Assembly: GCA_964409365.1 (NCBI GenBank)
Contig: CAYPCX010000002.1
Coordinates: 32,984-96,983, forward strand
DNA from: an uncultured Planctomycetia bacterium
Lineage (GTDB): Bacteria > Omnitrophota > Gorgyraeia > Tantalellales > Tantalellaceae
DNA length: 64,000 nucleotides
Direction of reading: 5' to 3'
The position numbers were made by a program, and so were the translations under genes. Positions 21,001-51,000 of this stretch are shown here, one piece after another (within the stretch, counting starts at the first letter, position 1; the number at the start of each line of letters is the position of its first letter). The notes under the pieces were generated by a model. It saw only the letters and a list, made by a program, of their open reading frames with translations. It was not told where the DNA came from and searched no databases.

Positions 21001-24000
21001 GATTACCTCGGCCTCCAGACGATGGAAGGGAACGTGGCAAGTTCGTTCGACGCCAAACTCGAGCTCCTGACCAAGGTCCTCAAAGAGGAGATCTTTACCC
21101 CGGACGTGGCAATGGCCACGCGGCAGGAACTCCTCGAGGAAATGGTGGAGAAACTCGGCATAGTGCCGGAGAGGGCGCCCAATTACGCGGGTGTCTCGCT
21201 TGAGGATTCACAAAAGTCCTGGCTAGAGGGAGAACTGGGCGAGCTTTTCAGCTTCGGCCAGCTCGACAAGAACTCGGACGGAAAGATAACCCAGGCGGAA
21301 CTCCTCCAGACCCTTGCCGGTATATTCGACTTCGAACAGCTGGACGCCGACGGCGACGGCGTGACGACCCAGAGCGAGATCGACGACATGGCGCAGGTCA
21401 TACGCGATATCCTGGAGACGAGCACTCTCTCGAGCGCCGACCTGGAAAGCGCCGATATAAACGAGGACGGCGTGGTGAACGGTTTTGACCGGGATCTCCT
21501 GGAAACGGTGATAGAACACAGCTTCGACGTCAACCAGGATACCGTGATCGATGAGGATGACATGAAGGACTGGCTGAGGATCTACGATTATATGGGGTAC
21601 AGCCTGGAGGAGGACGAAGAGGCCGGTATATGGCATCTCGTCGATCTGGAGAACGCGGACATAGACGGAGACGGTCTCATAGAAGGCGGATGGTATCTTG
21701 ACGAGGTCGCGGCGTGTGAAGAGAACCCGGCGGGATATGAGTTCGCCGAATGGGACCAGGACCGTTATCCCGAGGCCTGGTCGGACAGGACGGCGTATCT
21801 GGATAACATGCTCGAGGTCCAGGACCACCTGAACGTCCTTGACTTCGACCTTGACGGCGTGTTTGACCAGTCCGACGTGAGGGCGGTAACGGACCTCATG
21901 CTGTTCATCGAGAACAGCACCATAGAACGGGATATGGAGAACCGGAACGTCGCGGACCTCCCCAACGATTATGACCTCCTGAACGAGAGCTTTCTCGGCA
22001 GGGACGGCGTGGTCAACGATATCGATATCGCCACGTTCCTGGAGGTCACCGACCCGGCCAGGCACGCCGACGTCAACAGGAGCGGCCAGGTGACCGACAG
22101 GGATGTCAACCGCATAAGGGAGATCATGGATTTCGATTCTATCAGGGACGAGTGGGAGGACTGGAACGCCTCGTACACGGAAGAGGACCCCTACTGGATA
22201 AACACGAACCTCACCGACAGGATCATACACGTGGAAAACAGGCATTTCAGGATAACGTATGAAGCGATCTCGGGCATATATATCTTTGAACCTTTCTATG
22301 TCCTGGAAAGCGAAGTGCCGGATGAACCTGAGGACAACATTCTCAGCGACCCGGAGGCCGGCACGGTAACGATAATGGGCAAGGACCTGGAGGGCAACTA
22401 CACCGAAGAATACGTGTATAGCATCGAGGTCGATCCGGAGACCGGAAAGCTCACCCTGATCAGAGGGACAAGGGAAGCCGCGGAACAGAGCGCGCTCCGC
22501 GCTTACATGGAGAGAGCCGATCTTACCGGCGACGGCAAGGTGAACTATTTTGACAAGAACGTTCTCCAGGACGTGAGGGATAAAGCCGCCTCCGCCGGTA
22601 TTACGCAGATGGACCAGCAGATGCTGGACACGGTAAAAGAGGTATTCGCCCTGGTGAACGCCTGGACGGTCACGCTGGAGAAAGAAAAATGGGTGAGCGA
22701 GAACGTATATGACCAGGTGATCACCATGGAGGGCAAGAAGCTGGGGATCGAGATAGTGACCGGGGACAATACCACCAGCTATGTCTTCTATGATATAGAC
22801 GGCGGCAACAGGGCCTACCAGGCCGATATGGACGAGATGACGGTGCATATAGGCAGCGTGGTCTACCTTATCATACCCAACGAGGCGACCGGCGATATCC
22901 AGCTCAGAAAGCTCTACATCAACAGCTATGAAGTCGGTGACTGCGCGATCACCGTGGAAGGAAGGGACTTTGTCGTCACTAAAGACGAGACGAGCGGGAT
23001 ATACGAGTTCAGGGAGGGCACCAGGATATATGAGAGTCAGCACATAGAAGAGAAGGATTACGTGATAATAAACGGCGCGCCGTGGGAGATAGTGGAGACC
23101 GGTTCGGGCGAGGTCAGCCTCTTCAAGAAAGCGGAACAGGCTACCAGCACGCCCGTTTCCGAGGACCTGCAGGTGATCGTCCTTTACAGCAACCTTTATA
23201 CGACGAATAAAGTATACACGGTCGACGATTCCGATCCCGACATGCTGGTCTTCTCGAACGCCGAAGCGACCTACGTGACGCTTAAAGGCGAAGATACCGT
23301 GGTCATCGAAGGCACGCTCTACGATGTGGATTACGATGCCGCCACGGGCGAGGTCACCCTTACCGAGGTGCTTTTCGGCGACTTCGACGGCGACTATTCA
23401 GTGACGGCCGAAGAACAAGCCATGCTCAGCTCAGCCATAGGCGCGTACACGACCGGCGTGCTCGAAGCCGGCGGCGCGGCGTCCCTGTACGTGGATATAT
23501 ACGGCGTCCGTTACGACATCATCGTCGAAGAGGACGGGTCCATAACGCTTGCCGAACGCATTATCCGGTCCAGCTTCGTCGACACGATAAAGGTCGGCAC
23601 GACCACCTACAAGGTCACCACAGAGACCCTGACGGAATCCGAAGAAGGCGACAGGTTCGACCACGACGTGCTCGTGTTCACCGAAGTATCCCTGGTGGAG
23701 ACCGAATTCTCCTCGCGGACGGGAAGCTATACGACATACGTGATACAAGAAGGAGGCTATACCACCAGCGACTACGACATGGAAGAGGTGACCATCGGCG
23801 GTCAGACTTACGGGATAAGATGGCTTGCCGAAGGCGGCATAGAACTTTTCGATACCGGCACCGAGGATGCCGTAAGTTCCGCCGGTGATTTCCTGATATT
23901 GGAACTTACCTCTACGACGGATGAAAATGACGCTTTTGCCACCAGCCGCTGGCTGGGAGACGGAAAACTGGATATCAGCGGCCTGTACCCGTCGGATACG

Positions 24001-30000: not shown

Positions 30001-33000
30001 GCGAAGCTCATCCATACCAATATCAATAGCTACGCCGCGCCTTCGGTGATACTGGGCGATGTGTTCTATATCATCGAAGGTCCCGACGGGAACGGCCATT
30101 ACACGGTCCGGGAGGCGTTCAAGGAGGCGCCCGAAAAACAAGTCAGTTACACCTACACGACAGATACGGAATGCGTGGAGATAGGCGAGGCCCTCTTCAA
30201 GGTAAGCGAAGAGACGGCGCCCTCGACGGGCAGGGAATGGTTCGTCCTTGAGAAGATGGAAGTTACAACCTTCCTGAAGGACGAGGACCAGATGATCGTG
30301 GGCCTTGAGGGGGACAGGTTCTATACCGTCCAGGCCGTGGGGAGCGTGCACGCCTTCCAGAACCTCTACGGCGAAGAGGGTACCGAACTTTATTATTCCG
30401 CGATGGAAGCTGAAAAAGAGATCGTGTACTTCGCCGCCGGAGAGATGTTCGAAGTGGCCGAGGACAGCCAGACCGGCAGGCTCCAGCTTATTCCGGTATA
30501 TATCGAGCATTCTTTCAAGGGAGAAAAAGCGATAATAAACGACCGGTATTACACCGTTACGAAGGAGACCCAGGGGTCTGCCGAAAGGTACACGTTCGAT
30601 GACGGTGTTACCCAGACCAGTTCCGACTGGGCCGAGCTGGACGTTTCCAATATCTACCGTTCGGTTATGGAGCTGGACGCCGTTACATATGATATGGTCG
30701 TCGAAGCCGACGGGACGATCAACCTCTCCGGCAGGACCACGGAAGCGTCCGGTGCTTACATCATAGAGGTGAACGGCGCGCAGTACGTGGTCAGCGAGGC
30801 ACAAAGTGCCGACGGGTATAAGGCATGCAGGCTTTTTGACGGGACCACCTGGTATACCGCCGACCCGCCGACTAGCACCATCAGGCTGGCCGACGACGTG
30901 CTGTACAGGGTGACCAGGGACCCGGAGACGGAAGAAGTGATTTTAAGCGACGCTTACGTGGAAAGCCATGACGTCCAGGCGGTCGAGATAAACGGGAAGA
31001 TATACCTGGCATACGAATCTTTTGACGACGACAGCCACGCTTACAAGTTCTATGACGGCTACGGCGCCTACGCCAGCGCGCGCGACACGTTCGGTTTCTA
31101 CCGTGACGGCGAGAGCCTCTTCAGTAATTACGCGTTCTACGAAGAAGTGGACAGGGACAACTTCGAGGAATACGAGAAAGAGGACATCTTCGGCGGCCAG
31201 GACAAGTTCAGCCATAACGAGATAAATTACCGCATCGATATCCCGAGCGCGGGCGTGTATGACATAGGGCTTTTTGCCAGGACGTATAACAGCACGCTGG
31301 CGCCTACGCTGAACGGCCTGGACATGGGTTATGAGTTCACGGTCAAGGTCGACGGCGTAGAGAAAGGATCGTTCCTGGTTAGGGCCACTTCCGAAACCCT
31401 TACCATGGGAAGTATGCCCGTCTATCTCGGCGAGGGAGAACACGACCTGAATATGGTCTGGAATATTCCCGAGTGGTACGCTTCCGCGGACGTCAAGGGA
31501 GACCTGACCCTCGAGGTAAAGGACATATTCGTATCGGAAGGGGAACTGGACGTCTATGACCTGGACGGTGACCTGGACGTTGACGATGACGATCTGGCCA
31601 TACTGGTCACCAACATAGGAAGTACCGCGAAGACAAGCGACGACAGGGAAGAGAAGGCGTTCGAACTTAAAGGTAAATATTATTACTATTATTATAGCGC
31701 GCCCGGTGACGAATACATCATCTCCGACGGGGAGGCCTTATACGCGGTATATACGACCGCCGGAGGCAATATGGTAGACCTGGACAGCGGCCAGTTCAAG
31801 GTGACCGTTAACGAAGCGGAAGGGACGCTGGAACTCGAAGAGGGCACTGCATACACCATCTCCCAGGCGGACCAGGTCATAGAGTGTAACGGCGTCCAGT
31901 ACCTTGTGTTCTGGGAGGGCAGCGACGTAAAGCTCAAGTGGGACGGCGGCGACCAGACCTATGGGTCAACATCCGGCCCGCCGTGGATCGAAATAATACT
32001 GGACGGGATCCCCTATACGTTCAAGACCAACCAGACGGACAAAAAGGTCGAGCTTGAAGAGATCATCATAGAGGCCATGCCGGTATACGAGGAATATATG
32101 GTGGAAGTGGCCAACAAGATATACGTGGTCGCCTTTGACGGGAATACCATGAGGTTTATAGATGCCAACGGCACGGTAACGCCGACCGACCTGGACGAGG
32201 TGACCGCGCCTGATGGGACGGTATCCAAGGTGGGAGAAGTGTTCCTGGCGGGCATGTTCTACAGCATAACGGTCACAGGGGACGACCAGATCGCGCTCGC
32301 CGAGCTCGGCGTGCCGGTCAAGTCCGAACCGGCCCAATCGACCCGCAGGATAACCCTGGGAGACGAGTACATGGTCCTCGATAACGGCGACGGCACTTAT
32401 ACCTTCGGCAAGCTTGCCGATACCGAAGTGTTCACATCCTCTTACACCACGGGCATGGTCGAGATCGTCGAGGGCGAACACACCACTACATATTATGTCT
32501 TTGAAAACCCGGCAGACGGGACCATAGCGCTCTTTAGAGATCCTCTCATGCACAGCATCGACCAGGGGCAGGAAGGCACGATAAGCGTCGTGTTCGATTC
32601 CTACGAAGCGTTCTACGATATAGATCAGTGGGACGCGGGCGGCGGCGATATGAGATACCGCTTCACGGATATAACCGACGGCGAAAAGGTATGGGTGGAG
32701 GACGCCGACGGCACCGTAACTATCGAGGGGATAACTTACGGCATAGTCCTCGAGGGAAGCCGGATGATACTCGAGCAGAAACCCATAACCAGCGACCCGT
32801 TCGAATACAGGATAGTCTACGCGATAGGACTGAGGAATTATGACGCCGCCACCACCGACATTATCGCGGACGATTTCAACTATGCCGCGTTTGACGCTTC
32901 GAGATGGGAAACCTTTGTTTCCATACCCGAATGGTCGATGGAAGAGAAATATTATGTTGACGATATAGTTTCCAAGGATGGTGTCGATTATATCTGTACG

Positions 33001-36000
33001 AGCACTCATACTTATCACCCCGATTACGTGCCGGGGACCGGATCGAACTGGATTTCGAGGTGGTCGGTATTTGATGGTTCCATGGACACCTGGGAAGTGA
33101 CGGACCGCATGCTGAAGAAGGAGAACGAGCACGGCAACGACAAGAGGGCCATTTTCACGGAAAGTGAAACGGGCATCGAAGCGAGCGGCAGCCAGGAAAG
33201 CTCCTCGATAAGCGTAAAGGTGAAGATCGACGACGTCGCGGACGCGCAGGCAGATATCTATGCGGGTTACGTGAACGATTCGGATGACGTAAACGACTAT
33301 GGCAGCGCGTTCTATCAGATGAGGGTAGGCAAGGATGATATACTCACGATCTACCGCAAAAATGAGAATGAACTGGAAGAGCTCATCTCCGTTAACGTCC
33401 TCTCCGGGTTCGGCATAGACATAGAACCGGACGAGTGGCACGAATATACCTTCGGCGCGTGGGAGGACGAGCAGGGAGTTATCATAAAAGCCTTTATCGA
33501 CGGCGAGAAGATAATCGAACTTGCCGATCATACCGATAGGGCGATAAGGGGCGGCAAGGCCGGCGTGGGATGCCCGGCCGGCGGCAGCGTGCGGTTCGAC
33601 GAAGTAAGAGTGAACGCCGTCATGCCGGCCGTCGTGGCGTTCTATGAGATAACCGAGACGGAAGAAGGCAAGTATCTTTTGAGCGACGGCATGTATCCGC
33701 CCGTAGAATCGGAATATGACGGCCAGTACACGACGTTCACGACACACAGGACTATAGAGCTTGAAGGCGCCGAGTACAAGATCGTGTATGACGGCGATAA
33801 CGGCACATACGCTCTTTATGACGGGGCCTCCACGGATCCCGTCGCGGAAGACCTCGTCCTCACGGCCAGCGGCGCGTATACCACCGGGATAAACGGGATA
33901 GTTTACAGGGTGATCGGGACCGATGCCGATGATTTCCGGCTCGAAAGCGTGGAAGAGACGGTCGGAGAGAGCGTTACGGGGAAAGTCCTCAGGTTCGGGA
34001 GTGAATACTACAGGGTCACGGAAACGCAGCTCGACCGCGCCCCGGCTGAATTCACGGAAATAGAAGAAGATGCCGTGCTTATACCCGATGCTGACTACAC
34101 AGATACGGGGAACACCACCTGGTACAGCGTCTATACGACCGGCGGCGGCGAATATGAATTCAAGGCGTATAACGGGACCACATATACGGACACGGACGAC
34201 GACAAGGAAATAATTATCGCGGGCGTCACGTATCTGATAGACGACACGACCGATCCCGGCAGGATAATACTGACCGAAAAGTACACGACGGCTTCCGCTG
34301 TGGAAGCGGCAGACCTTGACAATGACGGCGATATAGACGCGGACGATGAAAGCGTGATCCTGACGGCGATAACCGATGGTGTTTATGACTGGATGGCCGA
34401 CCTGGACGAAGACGGCGACGTGGACCTGGCGGATCTCATCGCCTTCCGCGGGTGGAGGTTCGATACGGCTCAGGTAACAAGCGTCAGTTTCGAAGACAAC
34501 GAATACTACATGGCCAAGCTCGGAGAGGACACGTACGTACTCGGCGACTTTACGACCGGCGAGGTCACGGCGAGCAGTCTCGGCGCGGACGGAAAACCTT
34601 TCGTGGAATTCGCCGGCCTCAGGTGGCTGATAGAGGACGACGGTACGGTGGGCGCGCTCGGCACGACAAGTATTGAAGAGGACATACGCCTTTTCAGGGT
34701 CGACAGCGGCGAGAAGGTAATAGGAAGCGCGACCTTGAACGACAACACGTTCGTATACAGGGAGAAAGAATATTATATTACGGGTACCGGCATCGAAGAT
34801 ATAGCCCTTAACGCGGATTACACCTGCATGAGCTTTGGTAACAGTTCGTATGATAATATCGAGTGCGGCGACGCCGAAGGTTTTAATGCGGACGCGTTCA
34901 CGCTTTCAGTCATGGTATATCATACGAGCGGAACCAGCACTTATGATCCCATAGTTTCGAGAGGCAGGTACGATGCCGGTAGTTTTGCCGTTAACGTGAT
35001 AAATGAAACGGATACATTAAGGATATTCAGGAATGGCAACAAAGTAGCGGAAGCCTGGGATCCTGTCCTTGAACTGGCCAGGGATCAGTGGAATCATGTC
35101 GTGATAAAGTACGAGAACGGTAATATCACGGCGTACGTGAACGGAGAGTCTGAAAGAGCCGCGGGATTCGACATATACGAGAATACAAGTCAGGATGTTT
35201 ACCTCGGGAAGTGGATAGCGAGCGTGTACGGTGGTTATTGGTACAACGGTTATCTCGACGAGTTCGCCTTCTTTGACAGGGCGCTATCAGAGACGGAGAT
35301 ACAGGCCCTTGTGGATGCCGGTCCGGAAGGGAACGAAGAGGGTATTGTCGCTTATTACTCGTTCGATGCTGGCGACGCGAAAGACGACTCCGGCAACGGG
35401 AACGACGGAAGCATGGAATATAGCGTTGCCCCGGCGGTCCAGCCCAGGATCAGCGCGGAAACCGCCGCGCCGGTCATTGAATTCGACGGCGATCTTTACG
35501 AAGCGGTCTGGTCGGGATGGGACTGGTCGCTCGCGAATGGTTTTGAGGCGATAGAATTCGGTTTTGAAGACCGCACCGAGATCGCGGGAATAGAGTATTA
35601 TCTTGAGGATGTCGGGCTCGAGAGCATGAGCCTTGCCGGACCGGTCTCCTCGAGCAGGCACCTCAGGGAGTGCGAGGTCGTGTATGAATATACCACTATC
35701 GGCAGTGACGGAATCCTCATAGCCAGGGCGAAAGCTTCCGTCCTTGACGCGGACACGGACGTCGTGATAATCGGCCAGAGTATCGCGGTAAAGACGGCGG
35801 CCGAGAATACCGACATTACCGACCGTTTCGACGACGGCGACCTTAATGGCTGGACGTTCTCGGGCGGCGGCACCTGGGAGGTCAAGGATAACCACATGTT
35901 CCGTTCGGACAGGGCGTATAATGACGGTGACACGCAGGAGACCCCCGAAGTAAGGGCGATATACACATCAAGCGGCACAGAGCCGTCCGCTTCCGGCGAC

Positions 36001-39000
36001 AACACCAACTCATCCATAAGCGCGCGCGTCAACCTTTATGAGTGGTATATAGATACGGCTTCTTACTGGAATACCGGCGACGATTTCAGCGGTGATGCCG
36101 CGGTCGATCTCTACGTGCGTTACCAGGACGCGGACAACTTCTACAGGATGAGGCTGGGCGACCAGGACACGCTGGAGATCGGGAAGTCAACCGGTGGTGA
36201 ATACACGACTCTGGCAATTGTGAACGTCAACACCGGATTCGGCATAAACATCGTCAGGGACAACTGGTACCGCTTTGCTTTCGTCTGCGACGGGGATACA
36301 GGAGAACTGGCGGCATATATAGATGGAGTAGAGGTCCTGAGCTTCACGGATGCGGTGGGCGCCTATACGACCGGCGCGGCAGGAGTGGGCTGTGCCGAGA
36401 ACGTGAGGGCATATTTTGACGACGTGACTTTCGGCACTGCGACAGTAGAAAATATCACTTATTATACCGTGGAAATGGACGGCGGGAACTTTGTCTTCGA
36501 TGGCGGGATATATCCGCCGATAATCGTAGCGCCGGACGGAGTATATACGACCTACAGGACGATAGAACTGGAAGGCGCTGAATATAAGGTGGTCTACAAC
36601 GACGTATCCGGTAAATATGACCTCTATGACGGTGTGTACACTACTGCCGCGGCATCCGGGCTTGAACCGACGGCCGAGGGTACTTATACGACCGGGATCG
36701 GCGGCGTCGTTTACAAGGTATTCGGCACCTGCGCGGACGACATCTATCTGGAGAGCGTGACCGGGGTCGTTACCCAGGATGTAGATGAGAGGGTTATCGA
36801 TCTTGACGGGGAGCGTTTTATGGTCACCGAGACGCTTATACAGAACAGGAGCGCGCTCGATCCGGCAAGATCGGAGGACGACTACGTGATAATAAGGTCC
36901 GGCGACGAAGGGACCACAAAAGGACAGATCTTGTTCAACGATTTCGACGACGCGGCGGATACCCTGGAAGAGTTCGAATTCCACAGTCAATATTACCCGG
37001 ACAGCAGCGAATGGACGATCGAGGAAGGCTCTTTTAAGATACCGTATCAAAGCGGCGTGAAAAAGGCTATCTGCAGGTTCGTCAGTGATGCTTCGGGGGT
37101 CATGATGCCGCAGCTGAAGGATTGCGCCGTAACGGCCGAAGTCGAATCGTGCAACAGCTATAAAGGAATAGATCTCTACTTGCGGTACCGGGATGATGAT
37201 AATTTCTACCGTTTAACTCTTAACGAAGAGACCGATATCGTGAAGATAGAACGCGCCTCGAGCGGCGTGTATTCAACTCTGGCAGAGGTCAATGTTAATA
37301 CAGAGTTCAGCCTGGACCTCCTGGAAGACCAGTGGTATGAGATAAGTTTTGTGGCCTGGGGAAACAGGCTTACGGGGTATATCGACAGCATGGAGGTCAT
37401 AAGTGTCGTTGACGATTCCGCGGCCAGGATAGAAGAGGGTTACGCGGGCGTCGGCGGCCGTTCAAATACCGAGTTGTATTTCGACGATCTCGAAGTGGAA
37501 GAAGTGCTGGATTTCGAACGCGCCTATTACAAGGTCGAGAAGGTGAGTGACCAGTATGTGTTCACCGAGGCGGTCACCGGGGCCGTTTACACGAGCGACA
37601 CCTGCGGCACGTACACGACGTCCGTTGATATAGACGGAGCGACGTACGAGGTCGAATGGACGGCTGAGGATGATGTGATAATGACGGCCGCGTACAGCAC
37701 TCTTGCCGACCTCGATTCGGACGGTGATATAGACGCCGATGATGAAACTGTCATCAATGACGCCCTGGCCACGGGCGTGTACACCGCGGCCGCGGATATC
37801 ACCGGCGACGGCCGTATTGACGATAATGACCTCGCGATATTCCTTTCATACAGGTTCTCTACGACGCAGGTCGCCATGTACTCGGTCACGGGTGATAATG
37901 GCGTGGATGATTATTTCGTGTCCCGGGCGGCCGAAGGCGGATATTTCTTTGAAAAGGTAGAAGGGGATACCGAAGCGTTCCTCGGCGACTCAGCCGGCAA
38001 ACTGATGAAAGACCCGGACGGGGCGTTATATATCGCTGCCAGGTACACTACAAGCGATGATTTCCTCGATATGAGGGTGTTCGATATGGAGGAAGACACG
38101 AGGATATATCATTTTAACGACGGCACGGGAGAGATAGGCGCCGAATCGATAGCGAGGTCCTTTATACATGACGGAAAGGTCTACAGGGTCATCGGTACGG
38201 AGCTGGATGATGTTGCCCTTGTATGCGAGGGCGTCCAAGGCACTGAGGTCACTGCCCCGGCGGTCCTTTACAACGGCGATATCTATGAGAGAGCGGAGTG
38301 GGCCACGGTGACGGATAGTTTCGAAGCCGGGACCGATAGTTGGGATATTACCTGCAACGCGTCGGAGCCCTATACTACTTCCTGCAATGATACGGTCATC
38401 CTGGGCGGATACGAGAAGTTCAACTATGATGATACCGTCACCAAGACCTTCACGGGCGACCTGCTGCAGGATGCGGTTACCATAACGTTCGATTACTACT
38501 TTATCGATTCCTGGAGTGATTATGATGCTTACCTGGAAATAAACGGCGAAAGGGTGTGGGAACAATCGCATGATCACGACTTGCGATCCCGCACCGACGG
38601 TAATACGGAAGGCGGCCTGCTCGAAAAAATAGAGCCTGTCGGCAGCAGCAGCTATGACGACTACGTGGGGCACTTTGAAGTGGTCTATGACAATACCGGA
38701 GGGCCGGATACGCTCGCGCTCACGTTCGGGACAGGCGGAGGTTCAAGCACTTATTGGGGTATCGATAACGTGAAAGTCCAGCCCAGATACGAGCTGGGCC
38801 TTGTCTCCGGCGAGGAGATTATCGGGTTCGACTCCGAGGATAATACGACCATCGGCGGGTATACTTACCACTATTCGACCACTGGACCGGAAGATGTGTT
38901 CGTGGAAGGCCCGGTCTCGGGCAGCACGCACGTGGCATCCAAAGAAAAGGAATACCAGCTTTCAGGCACAGGCATATCGGACCTCGTGCTTACAGAGATC

Positions 39001-42000
39001 ACGGACGAGAAATTCTGCGACATTAACGGGGACTATTCGGTTAACGGCGCGGACGAGGGCATTATTACGGACGCCATCTCTACCGCTACTTATACCTCCG
39101 TAGCCGACCTTGATGGCGACCTTGACGTTGACAATGAGGATTATTTTATATTCAAGGCCCAGCTGGCGTCCGCGAACGCGGTATCCCGCCTTATAGAACT
39201 TGACGGCGTGGAATACTATATTTCCGAGAGGGACGAGGGTACCTATATGCTTACCCCGGCGGACGGCGAGGAAGTTACAGTAATAAGCCGGCATGACAGC
39301 GGGCTTTCGGGTGACCAGACCGTCTTTTCCGGCCTTCGCGGCGTAGATCATATCGTCACGGAAGCTGACGGTCTTGACGACGTTACGGTCGCGGAAGAAA
39401 TGACAGCCGATCTTGACGGCGACGATGACCTGGACGCGCAGGACTGGGCGATCATGGAGAACGCCCTCGGATCGGTCCGTCGTTCGGTAGCCGATGGGAT
39501 CGAAGCCGCCGCGAGCAAAGACTGGAACACGGACGTATACGCCGGCGACGCCCTCGCGATGCACGCTCTGGCCGGTGACAGCGATAACTGGCTGGAATAC
39601 GAGTTCGATATACTGCACGAGGGTGCGTTCGATATCCGCATACAGGTAAAGAACGGTTCGCCTTATAACGACCTCCCCGCCGGGTACCAGTACGCGTTCG
39701 ATCTTTATCTTGACGGCGCCCAGGAGAAAGCGGGTACGATATACGTTGACGGCGACAACGAAAGTTATTGCGAAGGCACCATAAGCATGGCGGACCTGGC
39801 GGAAGGGACGCACACTTTAAGGTTCGTGTGGGCGAACTCGGGAAGCGCTCAAATCCTCGGCCTCAAACACTGGGCCCAGCCGCGGGCAAGTTTCAAGAAG
39901 GTCTCGGTCATCTCCACCAATTATGACCAGCGCGCCGACCTGAACGATGACGGTGTGGTAGATGCCGAGGACCTTGATATCTTCATGAGCTCTTACGGAG
40001 ACACATCCCTCGCCCAGAGGCTTAATATAGGCGGCAGGGGGTATTACGTCCTGGAATCCCGCCTCACCGGAGGGTACGTTTTCTATGAGAGAGACGGCCG
40101 CAGGACCGAAACGGGCGAAAACGGCAAGGTAGTGCTTGACGGTGTCGAATACACGGTGAAGACGGAACAGGGCGTGATATCGCTGGAAGTGAGGGCCGAC
40201 ATCGACGGTGACGGGACGGTGGACGAGGACGACGAGGTCATACTGGAACTCGCGGCGGGTTCGACCGCGCCGTTCGAGCTCCTGGGGACCGAATACAGCG
40301 GTCTGGCTTCCGGCGCCAGGTCCGACCACATGAGCTTCGACGGCGTCGATGATCATATAACCGCGCCAGTGGTGCCCACATCCAGTATAACACTGGCGGC
40401 ATGGGCTAACATTGATCCTGCAGAAACGTTGGGAGAGATTGCCGGCTGGTCGAACATATACGTGAATTACGGTTTCTCATTACGCGTCGACGGAGACGAA
40501 CTCATCGCGAACGCCTCACAGAGCGATACTACTTATTTTCGCGATAACGTAAGGTATGACATCTCGGACCTTAAAGGCGAATGGGCGTATTATGCGATGA
40601 CATGGGAATACCTCGGCGGCGGTACGGCCGGAGACTATCCCATAAGAGTGAGCCTTTACGTGAACGGGGAACTTGTGGCTTTCGCTACGGGTTCCGACAC
40701 CGAGATCATGCCCCGCGGCGACACGGGGAGTTACGCGTTCAGAATAGGCTCTTCCGCATATTATTCGGGGACTTATTACAGGCCGTTCAAGGGTCTGGTC
40801 GACGATGTGTCCCTCTGGGACGAGGCCCTGACGGGAGGAGAGATACGGGAAGTGATGAGTTCCGGTCCCGAAGGCGGCGAGGAGGGCCTTGTCGCTTATT
40901 ATTCGTTCAATGACGGCACCGCCGTGAACAATACCGGTGACTATACGACCGACGGGACGATGGTCAATGACGTTGCGTATGTGACGGAGCCGGATTATCT
41001 ATGGCAAGAGGATACGATGGAAGGCATACTTTATGCCAGTTCAATCCCCGTAAGCGGCAACGTTTACCGGTTGACTTATGAATTCGACGACGTATACGGC
41101 CGCGGCAATTATAACATCGGCCTCGACGTCAGGACGCACGCGGCCGACACGGTGCCGCTCCCGGGTTTTGAGGGGTACAGATTTCTCGTGACGATCGACG
41201 GGGAAGACGCGGGGCTTATCGAAGTACCGCCGGACCGCATGACGTACCGTTCGGGCAGCGTGAACGCGGATCTTGAAGACGGTGACCACACGGTGACGTT
41301 CACCTGGCTTAATCCCGAGGAAGGCCTTGCCATCGATATCGGCAGGGTGTTCGTGGCAGATACCTGTTACGTGGAGGAGGCGGACATAAACTTCGATGGA
41401 GCGGTCAATTCGGAAGATATCCGCCTTTTCGGATCGCACAGGATAAAGGGCGAGCTTACCCAGACCATAGAGCTTGATACGAAGACCTACCGCGCGACGG
41501 TGGATCCGGCAAGCGGCATGGTAGTGCTTACCGACAGCGAGGGCACGAGGTATACGAACGCGGCCTCGAGAGAACCCGGAACGGCCCTCAGCTTTGACGG
41601 TTTCGAGGACCACCTGGAGGCATCCGGAGAAGTGTTGGACGGCCTGGAAGACTTCACCATCGCCGAACGCATAAAACTGGCGCAGGCGGCGAACGAAAGA
41701 AGCTGTATAATAAGCGGCCGTTACGGCGATACGGCCGAAGACGGGGAACTGCGCATAGTTTATGATTCACACGAGAATCGCTGGGAAGCGAACATAGACG
41801 GCGAAGTATATTTGTTCGGCGCCGATGATTCCATCGAGGATTCCGAATGGCACGCGATAGCCGTCACACGCGAGTATTCGACCCTTACCCTGTATATAGA
41901 CGGAGAACTGATAAGTACGGTAGAGGCGAACAGGAATACCATAAGGACCGCCGAGGACGGCTTCATGATCGGCGCGGGACAGTATCCGTCGGGTACCGCG

Positions 42001-45000
42001 GGGTGGTTCGATTCTCTGGAATCGTTCAAGGGCGAAATGGACGACATTTCCGTCTGGGGGAGGGCCCTTACCCAGGCGGAGGTACGCGAACTGTACAAAG
42101 GCGATCCGGCATCGACGATAGACGGCCCGGACGGTTTTGACAGGTATTGCCGCGCGTGGTGGGAACTTGACGAAGGCATGGGCGCCGAGTTCATGGACAG
42201 CACAGCGAACGACCGGGACGGGACCGTATCCGGCGCCGCGTGGAAAGAGGCCGCGTACGGATATGAAGATCCCGAATACGGCCGGGTCAAGGATACCATA
42301 GACATACCGCTGGTCTCGGATCCCGATACGGCAGTTTCTTACGTGGTAGCCGTCGATCCGGAGACCTCGGTGATAACCCTGGTGGAAAAGAGTATCTACG
42401 ACCTCAACGCCGACGGCAGTTTTGATACGGCTGACAGCGATATAATGAGGGACGCCATGGTCGCGGCGCTTCTGGAGAAGGACGCCAACGACATAAAGAG
42501 CGTATCCACGACAGAGTACACATGGGATTTCAACGGTGACGACACCATCTCCAGCGACGGTTTCGCCCTGCCGGCGCAGAACATGCCGTACGTGGAATAT
42601 CTGCTTAATGTGGATGAGGATGACGAATACCATGTAGGCCTTTCCTTCCGCAACGATACCCCGTATTCGAAGGCGAACAACTGGACACTGCCGTGGGGTT
42701 CCGATGTAGAGAACTGGGAGATATTCTCAGGGCACTTCCGGAATGACCTGACGGCGGCGGTATATACGACCACCGGCGGGGATATCTCGGGCAGCATGAA
42801 GATGGACATGACCGGTACGGATCCGTGCCTTTTCTATACCCGTTATTACGCCGCCTCGGAAGATCCGGATTACAGGCAGGGCTGGGCGGACGGTACGAAC
42901 GCGGCAGTCAACATGGATACGACCGGTTTCGTCGAGATCTGCTATAGATATGAGGGTGATTATACGCCCGATACGGCCGTTATATCCTGGAGCAGGCAGG
43001 CAAAGGCCTGGGACGAGAAGGACGACCTGCCGTTCGAGCTCGAGTTCGACGTAACTGGAGTGAAAAAACCGGAGGGTGAATACAAGACAGTACTCCTGGA
43101 CATGAGCTCGGTCGAAGGGTGGACCGGTAATATGCAGGCTTTCCGTTTCGATCCGGTTGAAGAAGCCGGGATCGATTCCGGTACGGTCGAGATAAAATAT
43201 ATAGCTTTCAAGGAAACGGCGGAAGGTGATCCCGTCGCGTTCTGGGGCGACTCACCGGGTATCGAGGCGCAGGACGAGCTCAAGCTCAGGGTCTTCGTGG
43301 ACGGTGAAGGATATGATGACTTCTACTGCGGCAATATAAGCGTTCCCTGGAAATCCACGGAAGAATCCGTCGATTATTACAGCGACGCGCTCGAGATACC
43401 GCTTACCCAGGGCGTGTACACGGTAAGATTCCAGTGGGCCAATGACTACGGCGAGGAGACAACTCTCCGCGTGGAGAGGATGTTCCTTACCAACATGACC
43501 AGCACGGCCGCTGATTTTAACGGCGATTACGTCGCGGACGATGAAGATCACGACCAGATGACGGAGAACCTCGGCATGAACGTCGCCGAGGGCACGCTGC
43601 AGCTCGAGGACGACCTCTACGAGATCACCAAGGTGGAAGAAGCGCCCGGCATGTTCATCTATGAACTGAGAAGATTCACGGATGAGGCCGAGCTTGCCGT
43701 GAGCGATCCCGGCCAGCGCACCGTCCGGATAGCGGGGACGAACTATAACCTCTTTGTCGATAAGATAGAGGAAAGCATCACTCTCGCGAGTTCCGGGCTT
43801 TTGAGCATGCCGGTAGCGGACGGCGAGATCGCCTTCAAGGGAGGCGAATATGCCTATGAATTTATCGAGGATGGTCTTCTGAAGTTCATAGAGACCGCAC
43901 CGGCGGCTACGGCTGTTACGGTCCAGCATCCGAGCTGGAGCAGCGAGATAACCGTGGGAGGCCAGACCTACGGTGTTATCGAGACGGCCGGCGGCAAGGT
44001 CACGCTGATACCCGCGGAAAGGGAGGAGATAGTGTTCTCGGCGGTGTCCGATCCCGCCGGCGGGACGGAATTCCTGCAGAACAATACGCCGGTCGAGCCC
44101 CAGGAGACGGAATTATGCATGATAAACGGGGTAGAAGTCGCTTCCTCCGAGTGGACCACGAAGGCGGGTATTAACATCGTTACCGTGGACAAGGATACGG
44201 GTGAACGGGAATTCACCAGCTGGGAGACCGACCTGGAGGCCAATGTCCAGGCGATGACGGTGTATTTGAGGAACCATGCCCAGGGGACTATCGTGATAGC
44301 TTCCAAGGGCGGCAGCAAGGTAGGCGCTCTTAACGAGGATGCCTTCCTCGCGCTGGAGAGCGCCGGCAGCGCGCATATCAGGGATGTTGTCAGCGGTTCC
44401 ACCTGGAGCATGGTCGGGTATATCGGCGCTTCGGAGGGCAGCGTGACCGAGGAATTCGATTCTTTAGGCGCCTCGGATTCGACCAGCAACGAGGTCGTAT
44501 ACATAAAGGACGGCCCGCACCCGACGAGCTACTTGAGCAACACGAAGATTGCCATTAGCGGCACGGAGTATGAAGTAGCCCATGACGACAGCGGGCTGCT
44601 CCGACTTGATATAAGGAAGGAATACGAGAGTTTTATCGAAGAACTTACGGGAGGCTACACCACGCACAAGGTCGAGATAGACGGCGCCGAATACACGATA
44701 ACCCAGGACGAAGAAGGAAGGCCGTCCTTGTACAGCGAGGGAGAAGTCATAACCGAGGAAGGCAGGAAGACGGTCGTCGCCGGCGGAAAAATATATTCGG
44801 TGACTTCCGTAGAACCCTCCGAAGGAGAACTGCTCACGCCGGAACAGGAAGGTAAACTGCGGCTTTACAGCGCGATATCATCCGAGTTCACCTCGGCCTT
44901 CATGATGGGCGGCGTCGAGATCACGCCCGCTGATGCGGTAATGGAACCGACGCGCCTCGAATTGGACGGCTACGTGCCTTTCGTCCAGGAAAAGTGCGTG

Positions 45001-48000
45001 GATTTCGATGGCACCAATGATTATATCGATTGCGACAACATAATGAACGGTTTTACCGATTTCTCCATCAGCCTGTGGCTAAAAACGGATCAGAATACCA
45101 ATTACGGGACATCATATGGGCATCAGGCTCCTCCGATAATCGGCACTGAGATGGGGTCCGGGAATACGGAAGACTTTGTCCTTACGAATTATGACGGAAA
45201 ACTGGTCTGGTATGACGAATTGGGTGAGACCTATAACACCTACGATACCGGCGTGTTTATCGCCGATAACCAGTGGCATCATGTCGCCGTGGTAAGGTCC
45301 GGTTCGACTATTACTTTCTACGTGGATGCCGAAGAAGCCGGTCAGTGCGCCACAGGGACGGATGACGTGGAAAATGACGCCGTCAGCATAGGGGGCAGAT
45401 GGTGGGATGGTTATGACTGGAAGCATTTCGACGGCATGATCGATGAAGTAGCCATTTTTGATACTGCCCTGGCGGAAGAAGATGTCGAGGCACTTTTGAG
45501 CTACAAGATTGAAGGAAATGAAAGTAACCTCACCGCTTATTATTCGTTCGATGACCATACGGCCGAAGACAGCTCGGTTAACGGTAACGATGGAACGATA
45601 CTGGGAGATACATATGACAGCGAGACGAAGTGGGTGGACGAGACCGGCCTGTATCTGTATACCACTGATGAACGCGAGCACATTTCCGTGCCTTACCAGG
45701 CCGTGGAAGGCCTCTCCGATTTTACTTATTCCATAAGGGTAAAAGCCGGGGGACTTGAAGAAGGGATATTCCTCCTGGATACCGAAGGAACGGACGCCCT
45801 TACGGTCTACTATGACACTTCCACCGAAGAGTGGTGCGTGAAGATAGGGAACGATCTTTACAAACTCCAGGATGATTCGCTGACAGATATGGGCTGGCAC
45901 ATGGTCACGGTGACGCGCGAATACTCGACGCTCGCGTTGTATGTCGATGGGGCCGAGATCGAGACGATCGAGGGTATAACCGAGGCCCAGATAAGCGTAT
46001 ACACAACGGACGCGTGCATAGGGCCGGGACTGGTAAAGATCGATACTGTGGCTAAAGTGGACAAGGAAGGTTTTGCCGGGATTAAGGCCGGTTTCCGCGA
46101 TATATCCGTCTGGGAAAGGGCGCTTGACGGGGCGGAAGTTTCCGCGCTGTATACGAGCGAGCCCGCTTCAATAACGGGTTACGGCGACGACTGCCGCGCG
46201 TGGTGGGCGGTCGATGAGGGTACGGGCGCGCAGGTACTTGATGCGACGGACAATTCTTATGACGGAGCATTCGAGCTGGGCGCCTGGGCGATCCAGGGCG
46301 AAGTGAAGTGCGGCCATGACGGGGTGTTCACGAACGAAACGGCGCTCTGGGCTCCGGAAGACGGCGTTAATATGGCCTATATCCCGCCGGCCGGTGACAT
46401 CGAATTCTCGACCTGGGATACGAGCTATACCACGAACGCCGGCGCGATGGCGGACTATCTGGAAGGGATATACTCCACCGGCATGCGGGAAGGCGCGGTA
46501 CTCCTGGTCTCGATACAGGGGACGACCGCCGCTACCGGCCTCACCGAGGACGCTTTGGCGGCGCTTGAGGCTTTCGGTTCCCTGGAGATAAGGAAAGTTT
46601 CAGCGAGCGACAGGTGGAGCATGGCCGTTCTCGTGGAAGAAGTATCCGAAGACGGGACGATCACGGTAAGCGCTGTGCAGGAAGACCGCAGTGATACGGC
46701 CGGTGCGTCAAGCCACAGCCTGGCGTGTCTCGACGAGGACGACTCTCTCGGCGGGATATACGGCAGGAAGATGACGATCGACGGGGACGTCTACAGGATC
46801 ATTTCTGACGGAAGCGGCGCCATGATGATGGAAAGGAGCGAGAAGGTCTTCATCCTGAGCGACGGCACGGAAGAATTCATGACCGGCCCGAACGGCATCA
46901 TAACGCTCGGGGACAAGGATTATTTCGTGATCGAGGACGAGTCCGGGATCTACCTGAAGCCGGTCCATGTTGCCGACCTGGACAGGGACGGCGACCTGGA
47001 CAGGGAGGATATCGATCTTATGGACAGCCACATGGGATCCGCCCTTATCGAAAGAAAGGCAGCGGCCGACTCCGCGTTCCGCTACCTCTTTGACTCGATG
47101 GAATCGGGTGGTGAACTGTATGCCACGAGCCTGGCAGAGAACCCGTATATAGAAGGCTTGTATACCAATTCGTCCGCTTCTTCAGGGGATATACTGGCGG
47201 GTATAAAGCTCAAGGGATATTCCGGATATGATGTGCCGGAAGAGGGCTATAAATTCGATGTAGACATAAAAGGCCCGGATGATAGCGTGCATCGTAACGT
47301 CGGACAGATAACCGTGTTCGCCGGAGAGGACTATTACGGTGAGGCGTCGATCCTCCTGGAGGATATGCCGATAGGCGAATATTATGTCAGGTTCACGTGG
47401 GTGGACCAGGAAGAAGGCACGGCAGTGCAGGTAAAGGAATATTTCTTCGAAGATGACAAATACCTGAAGGCGGCCGATCTCAACAGTGACGGAAAGATAG
47501 ACGTTGAGGACAAGATGATCATGCACGAGAGTGCCGGTGACAGCGTACGGTTCGCGACACTGGATATAGATGAAGAGCTTTGCTATGTGACATATGAGTT
47601 TTCCGATAATCAGTACCACTTCTACTACATGGATGAGGAATACATCAGCGACGAGAGCAACCGGTTCGTGGTCCTGCCGGGCAGGGCGGAAGGTGAGAAT
47701 ATCATTTACAGCATTGCCGTGGGCGAGCCTGACGAGGCAGGACGCCTCCAGATACAGCTTACCCAGGTGCTCTGGGGCGACATGAACTCGGACGGCGTCC
47801 TGGATCCCGTGGGTGACAGGGTAGCGAAGATAGCCGAATATCTCTGGGATAACAGGGATAGCGCCATATCGCTGGATGAAGTAAGGCTCATGATAGACGC
47901 CATGAACGTAACGGCCGATGAACTGCGTGCCGCCAATATCTATTATGACAAGGATATCGACGGTAACGACCTGGTGGATTCGGAAGACGCGGGGCTGCTT

Positions 48001-51000
48001 GAGACCATGAAACGCTTCGTCGCGGACGTCCTGGCCTATCCGGAGAGGGTCGATTATATCCCAGTTGACGCGAACGTCCTGGTAGATGCCGATGGCGAGG
48101 TCAAGATATATGACGCCGCGGACGACAAACTCTGGAAGAAGTTCCTGCCTGACGGGCGCGTGTTCCGGTACGACAAGGACGGCCACCTGGACGAGATGAC
48201 GGACAGGACGGGAAACCTGATATACTGCCACCATGACGAGGAGGACCAGACCACGGTCACGGTCGATATCACGAACGATATTACAAAGTCTTATGACCAG
48301 CAGGGCAGGCTCGTTGAGGTGATCAGCGAAGAAGGCGAGTTGACCTACGATTATACTACAGTCGGCCAGACGATCATCCAGCATGAGACGAGGCTCGAAA
48401 GCACGTACACCACCCGAGGATTCGACTGTATGAGTTTTGATGAAGACGTTGAGCAGGTCCTGATAGAGGGCGACTCAAGCCTTAATGCCTCGGAAGCGTT
48501 CACCGTATCGGCATGGTTCAACTGGTCGGGTGGGTCAAGCTGGGAGAATATTATTGCCAGAGGCGACAGGGAAACGGGCGGGTTCACTGTTCATATAAAT
48601 ACCACCTATAATAAACTGTATGTTCAGAGAGACAACGGCTTGAGCAGTTTTTATGTCGATGTCGAGATCGAGGTGGGCGAGTGGTACCATGTCACGGTCG
48701 TAAAGGAGTCGGACGATAATGTGCATGTGTACCTGTACGATGCTTCTACGGATACCACCGCGACTGCGGACAACACCGGTTTTGATGTGGGGATCGCTTC
48801 GGACCTGAACCTCTCGATCGGGAACTGGGAATATAATTACCCATCCAGTTCTTTCCATGGATATATCGATGAGGTTGCGTTCTTTGACCGCGCCTTGGAC
48901 GCTACAGAAGCCCAGGAGCTTAAAGGAACCAAACTGAACGGCACCGAAGACGGGCTTGTCGCCTGCTATTCGTTCGACGACGGCACGGCCAAAGACATTA
49001 CGGGGAACGGCCGCGACGGTTTCGCTACTTCTACTTTCGTCCAGATGCACGAGGTCTCGGACGATGCGATCGAATTCTCGGCAATAATTCCCGAGGAAAG
49101 GAAAGCCGTGCGAGAGTTCGCGTCCGACGATCACCGGCTTATCAAGGATTATCTGGCCGGGGACCTGGGCTCTTACAGGGAATATGAGTATTACGCTTCC
49201 GGGGATTTCGGGGGCATGGTCGAGAAGATCACTTACGATTCCGGATATTACGAGACTTATGAATATTACGGCGCGTCCAGCCTGTTCGAAAACGAGATAA
49301 AGACCGTGACTTACAATACGCTGGCGGAGTCCGATTATCTTACTTTCGACGGAACGGATGATTACATCGATTGCGGTGATATAGCCGATTTTCATGACAT
49401 CGAGTACGGTACGGTAGAGACCTGGATCAAGGGGGTAAACGGGACCGTCTTCGATTTCGGTAACGGTATGGAAAGTAGCGCTGACAGGTTGAAGCTGGAC
49501 GTTTCGAGTTCTGAGGTGGAATTCTACCTCCATAGCGGGAATTCGACGGCATGCCCGGTCACGCTGGACCCGGACGAGTGGTATCACGTGGCCGTGGTGT
49601 GGAGTAGTACCGGCATGGAACTTTATATTGACGGCCTGCTGGCGGCGACGGATGACTTTTCGAACGGCCTGGATTACGACTACACCAACTTCCTGATCGG
49701 GGCAAATACTTTTGACGAATATTGTACCGGCTCTATCGACGAGGTCGCTGTTTATGATCACGCCCTGACGGGAGATGAAATAAGGCAGCATTATTCTGAC
49801 GGCCTGGAGGGGACTGAGACGGGTCTGGTAGCGTTCTACGCGTTCCAGGACGGGGAAGTTACCGATGGTTCCGGTAACGGCAAGGATGGCGTGAAGTATG
49901 GGACCACCACTGGTCTGGACAGGGAAGTCCAGGGCGAATACACGGAAGTGGAAGCGTCCGAAAACTATTCCTATTCTGCCGAAACACGCAGGCTTATCAA
50001 GGTAGAAGAAAAGGACTCCGAAGGCGCTGTCACCGCCGTCCATGATTATTCCTACGTGAGGAACTCTGACGGTGAACGTCTCGAGAAGGTCCTGGATATG
50101 GACGGGACGCTCCTTATCGTCGAGGAAGACACTTCCGGGGAAGAGGCGGTCTATATTTTCAGGACACCCGAGCTGACGATAGGAAGCGGAAAGATAGGGG
50201 ATACGTTCCTCTTTAGCGGCAAAGAATACAGGATAACGGGGACAGGCCTGGATGATATCGGTTTGTGGGAACTCGGCCTCAAGTTTGACGGCGCGGATGA
50301 TTATATCGGCTTGAGTTCCTATCTCAGCTGCGAGGAGTGGGAAGAGGTTACCCTCAGCACGTGGGCCTTTATCGATCCGTCGGAAACGGATGCCGAGATC
50401 CTCGGCTGGATGTATGGCGACAATATAGATGATTACGGATTATCTCTCAAGATCGTAGAAGACAATGCGGATGGGAGAACCTACCTGCGTGTGAGGGGGT
50501 CGGCCGACAACAGGACATGGTTCTATGAGAACGTATATTACGATATCACGGACCTTAAGGGCCAGTGGGCGCATTACGCCGTGACATGGAAGAATCTCGG
50601 TGAGGATGCCGAAACAGGCGATTACTTCGTAGAAGTAAAGCTTTACGTGAACGGCGAGGCGGTCGCATCCGGTGTGAATCTCGAGAATTATCCCGATCCG
50701 TTCTGGAACAGCTACAGGAGGTTCAGCATAGGCGGGTGTTATAGCGGCTCGGTCACAAGGGTGCTTAACGGCGCGATGCGTGACGCGTCCGTATGGAGCA
50801 GCGCGCTCAGTGAGGAGGATATGGCTGATATCTATTCCGGTGCGCTCGTTTCGAGTATAAACGGTTATGCCGAGGATTGCGAGGGCTGGTGGCGTCTTGA
50901 AGAAGCTTCCGGAACTGTAGCGGAAGACCAGACCCTCAATGACAGGGACGGTACCATTAACGGAGGAGCATGGGGCAACGTCAGGTCTTCTTACAGTACC

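Follow-up and report, generated by a model that had tools for sequence, protein, structure and literature searches.

Two diverged GG/ILEI domains flank a LamG pair in a giant open reading frame of an Omnitrophota bacterium and lack the canonical sugar-contact residues

Nucleotides (nt) 44116-46656 of a 64,000-nucleotide stretch from an uncultured Omnitrophota bacterium (assembly GCA_964409365.1, contig CAYPCX010000002.1, forward-strand positions 32,984 to 96,983; the whole stretch is called the window) raise the question of whether a pair of LamG domains is flanked there by two GG-type (ILEI/FAM3-like) domains and, if so, whether these domains recognize glycans, as a preliminary description made from the sequence alone had proposed. 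We found that nt 44026-44460 and 46255-46659 encode two diverged copies of the GG/ILEI domain, designated GG1 and GG2, which are arranged in the order GG1, 180-amino-acid (aa) spacer, LamG_3, LamG_3 and GG2 within an open reading frame (ORF) of at least 21,333 codons. The encoded protein belongs to the Dockerin-type giant surface proteins of Candidatus Omnitrophota, and we regard this description of the locus as close to certain.

Window positions 1-63999 form, on the plus strand, one stop-free reading frame of 21,333 codons that is cut at both window ends, indicating that the GG/LamG region lies within a fragment of a giant gene. This frame (frame 0) contains zero stop codons, and the other two plus frames contain more than 1,000 each; across nt 44116-46656 the frame was open, as had been described. 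Pfam scans spanned the window at a threshold of E <= 0.01, and all Pfam domain matches fell in plus frame 0. Minus-strand ORFs below the GG region (43968-44504, 45112-45900 and 46708-47031) were rejected as shadow ORFs because all domain matches sit in the plus frame, which is open for 64 kb, and every minus-strand ORF of 100-840 aa in the window was taken as a shadow ORF. The features that carry the main finding are as follows.

1-63999, plus strand: giant ORF fragment encoding an acidic, multi-domain protein of extracellular type, with no in-frame stop.
44026-44460, plus strand (aa 14676-14820; Pfam core 44167-44430): GG1, a complete GG/ILEI (FAM3-like) domain, identified by PF15711, the AlphaFold2 model and Foldseek.
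46255-46659, plus strand (aa 15419-15553; Pfam core 46363-46623): GG2, a second, more divergent GG/ILEI domain, identified by PF15711, BLASTP against GG1 and profiles.

Both segments were matched by the ILEI hidden Markov model (HMM) of Pfam (PF15711; curated cut-off, 27 bits), a check that had been proposed beforehand. GG1 scored 48.3 bits (E 1.5e-12), above the cut-off, and GG2 alone scored 25.6 bits (E 1.8e-5), marginally below it; jointly, the two stretches reached 61.8 bits in a 3,333-aa scan. BLASTP comparison of GG1 with GG2 showed 33% identity across 93 residues (E 1e-13). GG2 was counted as a family member because of this homology and because a profile built from GG2 and its two orthologues only reached FAM3B at E 9e-5 (and FAM3C at E 0.012). 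The core motifs of the GG fold, namely a G-x-N strand, F/W-D/E-T, a hydrophobic strand, A-x-x-A-L-E-x-x-G-S and x-x-W before the last strand, are present in both copies and read, in order, GINIVTVDKDTGEREFTSWETD...YLRN...TIVIASKGG...AFLALESAGSAHIRDVVSGSTWSMVG in GG1 and GVNMAYIPPAGDIEFSTWDTS...YLEG...AVLLVSIQG...ALAALEAFGSLEIRKVSASDRWSMAV in GG2. The motif order that had been described held for both copies, but some details of the pattern did not: G-(L/I)-N should be G-(I/V)-N in the first motif, GG2 has AG in place of TG, and F-(T/S)-(S/T)-W-(E/D)-T stands where F(D/E)(T/M) had been given. HMMs built from the two copies and then from 35 homologues detected GG1 and GG2 and no other GG copy in the 21,333 residues. 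When these two HMMs were run with --max over the whole window to look for a third or degenerate copy, nothing scored better than -3.5 and -3.0 bits.

We investigated the family relationship further by an exhaustive profile search of 1.84 billion representatives, which yielded 122 proteins at E <= 1e-3. The best domain of 33 matched proteins was aligned with GG1 and GG2 (alignment A2, 35 domains). All 35 members of A2 match PF15711, with a best E value of 1.2e-30, and GG1 and GG2 have all of the nearly invariant columns of the 35 domains (G48, N50, G59, A106, E111, G114, S115 and W127). Against the PDB, the A2 profile matched FAM3B (E 1e-22), the POMGnT1 stem (4e-21), FAM3C (5e-21), FAM3A (3e-20) and TMEM2 (4e-19); apart from GG-fold chains, no PDB match fell below E 0.09. 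GG2 scored 86.4 bits with the same profile. GG1 as a single sequence gave weak PDB matches to FAM3A/B/C (E 0.015-0.5, with FAM3A at 0.015 and FAM3B at 0.067). The best match in that single-sequence search, 5zza_P ("Uncharacterized protein," E 0.006), was judged to be chance because it was gone in the profile search. A word-indexed protein search gave no match with GG1 alone or with the 35-sequence GG alignment, and with the 1,000-aa GG-LamG-LamG-GG cassette its matches were dominated by unrelated LamG proteins. An exact 42-mer of GG1 had no match in collections of genome and metagenome contigs, and none of the matches that a degenerate pattern from alignment A3 gave in both collections was borne out by tblastn.

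AlphaFold2 modeling of GG1 with the A2 alignment resulted in a predicted local distance difference test score (pLDDT) of 95.1 and a predicted template modeling score (pTM) of 0.89; the model covers GG1 alone, not GG2. Modeling of GG1 without an alignment was unusable (pLDDT 41.5). A Foldseek search of the GG1 model against the PDB returned 21 matches at E <= 1.8e-5, all of them to the POMGnT1 stem, FAM3A/B/C or TMEM2, with template modeling (TM) scores of 0.63-0.74, and the match after those 21 came at E 0.68. The comparison with FAM3B/C and the POMGnT1 stem that had been suggested thus gave the expected result. Although GG1 had been located correctly, the full domain begins at 44026, about 90 nt upstream of the start given earlier, which adds two confidently modeled N-terminal strands. 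Against BFVD, the GG1 model matched phage receptor-binding proteins, tail fibers, gp35 hinge connectors and ILEI-named viral proteins (TM 0.53-0.74), in agreement with the link to phage hinge proteins that had been drawn, and PHROG 1154 (long-tail-fiber proximal connector) gave a weak match (E 0.0023). Both segments therefore have the GG/ILEI fold, as judged from PF15711, the A2 profile against the PDB and the GG2-only profile, and for GG1 also from the Foldseek search of its model. A lack of any significant GG/ILEI match had been named in advance as the outcome that would speak against this; significant matches were obtained in sequence and in structure, and the fold assignment stands as solid.

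Having the fold does not by itself establish the ligand, and we examined the residues that contact the sugar. The contacts of POMGnT1 with beta-linked N-acetylglucosamine (GlcNAc) are Arg129, Asp179 and Arg207, which are conserved in the FAM3 proteins and in the carbohydrate-binding Fam3L2 domain, and Asp179 and Arg207 are not conserved in the nonbinding Fam3L1 domain (PMC9802357). A phage Tal carbohydrate-binding module (CBM) of the GG fold retains the Arg and the Asp (PMC9437275). A POMGnT1 stem reference that is 100% identical to PDB 5ggj was aligned with the 35 domains. The triad positions lie in the motifs RG(I/H)N, KDEGS and RD(S/T)W, and the exact Arg/Asp/Arg combination was found in 16 of the 35 aligned domains. 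It was missing from all eight Omnitrophota relatives in the alignment, and the three positions are occupied by A/G/G in GG1 and by D/G/S in GG2. Since the triad is replaced in both copies, POMGnT1-like GlcNAc binding is not supported, and a ligand is unlikely to be bound as in POMGnT1. The argument from the fold to glycan recognition that had been made at the outset is thereby weakened, because all three sugar contacts are replaced in GG1 and GG2, although its premise, the GG fold, held. From the sequence comparison, the GG domains would either recognize a different ligand via a remodeled site or act as structural or protein-contact modules.

The Omnitrophota GG domains of the alignment share further features. 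An invariant Trp lies five residues before G-(I/V)-N, adjoining the former Arg129 position, and a mostly conserved Lys precedes the former Asp179 position. GG1-type copies have an insertion of about 16 residues, containing a Cys, between strands 2 and 3. Neither the subgroup Trp nor the Cys-containing insertion occurs in POMGnT1 or in other bacterial GG domains. These domains might constitute a distinct subgroup of Omnitrophota giant proteins in which the ancestral Arg/Asp/Arg site was lost and the site was remodeled (Trp, Lys and the insertion of about 16 residues), with the cassette serving as a recognition unit of new specificity for prey or host surfaces, for example for archaeal or bacterial envelope polymers; as a whole, this proposal is speculative and we consider it doubtful.

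The closest GG-domain relatives (P0001, P0003, P0004, P0007, P0012 and P0033) are all NCBI proteins from metagenome-assembled genomes of Candidatus Omnitrophota and share about 48-56% identity with the window; two relatives bear the NCBI name "interleukin-like EMT inducer domain-containing protein." The GG fold had been called uncommon in bacterial annotations, which is true in relative terms, but the ILEI name is found on close Omnitrophota homologues, the domain has been reported for such giant proteins, and it is present in other prokaryotic surface proteins. P0001 (5,387 aa, partial) is collinear with window residues 12991-15983 (47.9% identity over 3,028 positions) and has the same domain order as the window, GG-spacer-LamG-LamG-GG. 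The remaining parts of the cassette and the identities to P0001 are as follows.

43921-44025, plus strand: lead-in segment VQHPSW...GQTYGVIETAGGKVTLIPAEREE, which runs directly into GG1 and is 68.6% identical to P0001.
44461-45006, plus strand: spacer of about 180 aa with the hairpin-like motifs ISGTEYEV, IDGAEYTI and AGGKIYSV, 41% identical to P0001 and without a Pfam match.
45007-45483, plus strand: LamG_3 domain (concanavalin A-like), the 8th LamG-like domain of the window (LamG-8) and the best PF13385 stretch of nt 40000-49998, scoring 183 bits with our own LamG HMM.
45661-46137, plus strand: LamG_3 domain, the 9th LamG-like domain of the window (LamG-9), one of six PF13385 stretches in nt 40000-49998, scoring 93.9 bits with the same HMM.
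46192-46290, plus strand: LamG_3-leader-like motif CRAWWAVDEGTGAQVLDATDNSYDGAFELGAWA, which overlaps the N-terminal strands of GG2 and is kept in the orthologues P0001 and P0007.
Identity to P0001 by segment: lead-in 68.6%, GG1 53%, spacer 41%, LamG-8 28%, LamG-9 41.5% and GG2 41.5%.

The segment identities indicate that the cassette is conserved and that GG1 is its best-conserved globular domain. Judging from the collinearity with P0001 and from the 53% identity of GG1 compared with 28-41% for the LamG domains, the cassette may be under selection. Conservation within the cassette is highest in the lead-in before GG1 (43921-44025), with many invariant columns over three orthologues (alignment A3); no Pfam family matches this segment, which may be coupled to GG1 in structure. 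The window has 55 occurrences of the hairpin-like motif [IVLM]xGxxYx[IVLFAM], for example at aa 14652, 14852, 14893 and 15593 (nt ~43954, 44554, 44677 and 46777), whereas shuffled sequences average 5.6. The spacers that surround the GG domains and have no annotation are filled by this motif.

As had been described, two LamG_3 domains lie between GG1 and GG2. An HMM iterated from the best LamG_3 stretch mapped 16 LamG-like domains in the window, which makes this pair numbers 8 and 9 rather than 4 and 5, a difference of numbering only. In nt 40000-49998, PF13385 reached 361.5 bits over six stretches, the best of which (aa 15003-15162; 1670-1829 of the 40000-based query) spans profile positions 1-150 of 151. 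The sole NCBIfam match, TafC over LamG-8 at 36 bits against a cut-off of 410, was far below threshold and was disregarded. After LamG-9, a LamG_3-leader-like motif (CRAWWAVDEGTG...NSYDGAFELGAWA) continues directly into GG2 and is not followed by a LamG body, and in the relative P0004 (aa ~1430-1660) a whole LamG domain separates the GG core from the conserved lead-in/N-terminal strands. The leader motif before GG2 and the P0004 layout suggest domain insertion or shuffling at this junction.

We next placed the cassette in the context of the whole reading frame. The encoded protein is strongly acidic (D 10.8%, E 9.5%). The Pfam scans detected many LamG_3/pentaxin-type matches, the two ILEI domains, Dockerin_1 (up to 107 bits, seven stretches), EF-hand (EF-hand_7) and PF06439 (formerly DUF1080). 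The PF06439 sites (DUF1080/3-keto-disaccharide-hydrolase-like) lie at aa ~5753-5903, 11941-12129 and 19751-19947. Of the 51 calcium-loop motifs of the DxDxDG type in the window, 27 are crowded into positions ~14446-21843 (aa 4816-7281), and this run coincides with the Dockerin_1 and EF-hand matches. Lectin-like matches comprised a weak CBM_5_12 match (E 0.0036) at window positions ~32929-33042 (aa 10977-11014) and a GH59 C-terminal lectin domain (33.6 bits) at ~37267-37503 (aa 12423-12501).

This composition corresponds to the "Dockerin-type" giant proteins of Omnitrophota, whose domains include DUF1080 and "the ILEI domain" and for which attachment to host or prey surfaces has been proposed (West-Roberts et al. 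2023, bioRxiv 10.1101/2023.11.21.568195). The class also lists TSP3 and discoidin repeats, a C-terminal transmembrane anchor, a SecA-like region and an upstream locus resembling a type II secretion system (bioRxiv 10.1101/2023.11.21.568195). The ORF of the window was placed in this class by its giant length, at least 21,333 codons, together with its dockerin/EF-hand repeats, DUF1080 and ILEI. ILEI takes up one sentence in West-Roberts et al. 2023, and the cassette and the loss of sugar-contact residues are not described there; a 2026 preprint recovered the same dockerin class and does not mention ILEI.

The best overall explanation, to which we assign a probability of about 0.6, is a GG/ILEI cassette in a Dockerin-type adhesin. 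The protein would be an extracellular, calcium-stabilized adhesin of the Omnitrophota cell, with many dockerin/EF-hand-like loops and concanavalin A-like beta-sandwich domains, and the GG-LamG-LamG-GG cassette would form one noncatalytic ligand-recognition or contact unit along the fiber, in a role analogous to that of the GG fold in phage tail-fiber and receptor-binding proteins. The narrower proposal, an adhesin in which the cassette is a putative ligand-binding unit with a noncanonical site, has about even odds. Several observations weigh against the adhesin explanation. The triad is replaced in both GG copies (A/G/G and D/G/S), and the structural model covers only GG1. The ends of the gene lie outside the window, so that a secretion signal, a membrane anchor and any catalytic domain are unseen. 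TSP3 and discoidin (F5_F8_type_C) repeats were not found in the Pfam scans of the window at E <= 0.01 and may lie outside it.

In a competing explanation, the GG domains are not lectins but structural or protein-contact modules that provide rigidity, spacing or a hinge, like gp35 in the T4 long tail fiber, and ligand recognition would be left to the LamG/concanavalin A-like domains. The triad is lost in GG1, GG2 and all Omnitrophota relatives, while 16 of the 35 homologous domains elsewhere have R/D/R; the structural matches include gp35 hinge connectors, together with the weak match to the PHROG proximal connector, and FAM3C is known to dimerize (PDB 5lc4). However, among the domains of the cassette GG1 shows the highest conservation (53% compared with 28-41% for LamG), which fits a specific interaction surface, although equally a protein contact; the subgroup-invariant Trp beside the former Arg129 position could give a new sugar-stacking site, and GG domains of phage receptor-binding proteins have been interpreted as CBMs (PMC9437275). 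On balance we consider a purely structural role possible, though unlikely. It is considerably less probable that the GG domains belong, as accessory modules, to a glycan-degrading enzyme whose catalytic part lies beyond the window, as in CEMIP/TMEM2 (G8, GG and pectate-lyase-like repeats) or POMGnT1 (GG and glycosyltransferase). TMEM2 is among the sequence and structure matches, catalytic domains occur in other prokaryotic GG carriers (a C25 peptidase in P0014 and GH2 in P0077), and cell-wall processing was proposed for giant proteins by West-Roberts et al. Yet, at E <= 0.01, the Pfam matches across the 21,333 residues were all lectin-like, dockerin/EF-hand or concanavalin A-like, with no catalytic family among them; the Pfam scans of the window also found no G8 or PbH1 domain, and any catalytic domain would be thousands of residues from the cassette. 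That the GG/ILEI likeness is due to chance, or that the segments form a generic alpha/beta domain, has a negligible probability. The weak single-sequence PDB E values of GG1 (FAM3A 0.015, FAM3B 0.067), the score of GG2 alone, 1.4 bits below the Pfam cut-off, and the poor single-sequence AlphaFold2 model (pLDDT 41.5) would fit such a likeness, but the profile matched precisely five GG-fold families (E 1e-22 to 4e-19) and nothing else, and the GG1 model based on the multiple sequence alignment (pLDDT 95) matched GG structures only. Chance resemblance was refuted by these profile and Foldseek results, by the PF15711 matches of the homologues (35 of 35 domains) and by the GG2-only profile, which reached FAM3B independently.

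The finding itself adds little, because the domain scores above threshold in routine Pfam annotation, close homologues bear its name at NCBI and the 2023 preprint lists ILEI; the added information is limited to conservation of the cassette and to the absence of the canonical residues for sugar binding. Since those residues are missing, a test should precede any use of "GG-type lectin" as a functional annotation of these proteins. The cassette is common to distant Omnitrophota giant proteins, with GG1 as its best-conserved domain, which makes it a functional unit worth expressing. If a new ligand specificity tied to prey or host attachment were true, it would be of interest for the biology of episymbiotic or predatory ultra-small bacteria.

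Among known systems, the POMGnT1 stem (PDB 5ggf/5ggj/5ggl; Kuwabara et al. 2016) comes closest in structure (TM 0.74, E 1.6e-7), and its order of strands and helices is the same as in GG1, the two N-terminal strands included. Identity is about 20%, however; the window copies are without the triad, the GG1 type has the insertion of about 16 residues with a Cys, and no glycosyltransferase domain follows the GG domains of the window. FAM3A/B/C (ILEI, PANDER), secreted proteins of animals, belong to the same family, PF15711 (profile E 1e-22 to 3e-20; TM 0.63-0.74). The FAM3 proteins are small, single-domain and secreted, with conserved disulfides and R/D/R (PMC9802357), whereas in the window the GG domain is embedded as a module within a protein of at least 21,333 aa, has a single Cys and lacks the triad. 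The phage gp35 hinge connectors and the GG-fold CBMs of receptor-binding/Tal proteins match in fold (BFVD, TM 0.53-0.74; weak PHROG 1154 match), and the phage GG modules are, like those of the window, part of a long fibrous attachment device. Their sequence identity is only 9-16%, and CBM_1 of the streptococcal phage Tal retains Arg and Asp, which the window domains do not.

The Dockerin-type giant proteins, including MGB2630434.1, MDD3089405.1 and MGD2278886.1, share with the window the Dockerin_1/EF-hand loops, DUF1080 (PF06439), ILEI and many concanavalin A-like/LamG domains, and differ in the TSP3 or discoidin repeats, which were not detected in the window. Other prokaryotic carriers of PF15711 have the same family as an accessory module of secreted multi-domain proteins and are 25-34% identical to GG1, but they mostly keep the RGHN...KDEGS...RDSW motifs, with the triad inside, and their GG domains are without flanking LamG pairs and outside giant proteins. 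They include P0014, one of a family of proteins about 1,900 aa long that combine a C25 (gingipain-like) peptidase and two ILEI domains with CARDB and a FlgD_ig-like C terminus; another group (P0002) with five to six tandem GG/ILEI domains; P0077, a GH2/CBM30/BNR protein with a GG domain; and a PKD/NHL/LamG/dockerin protein. These carriers indicate that the GG fold is an established accessory module of secreted prokaryotic proteins.

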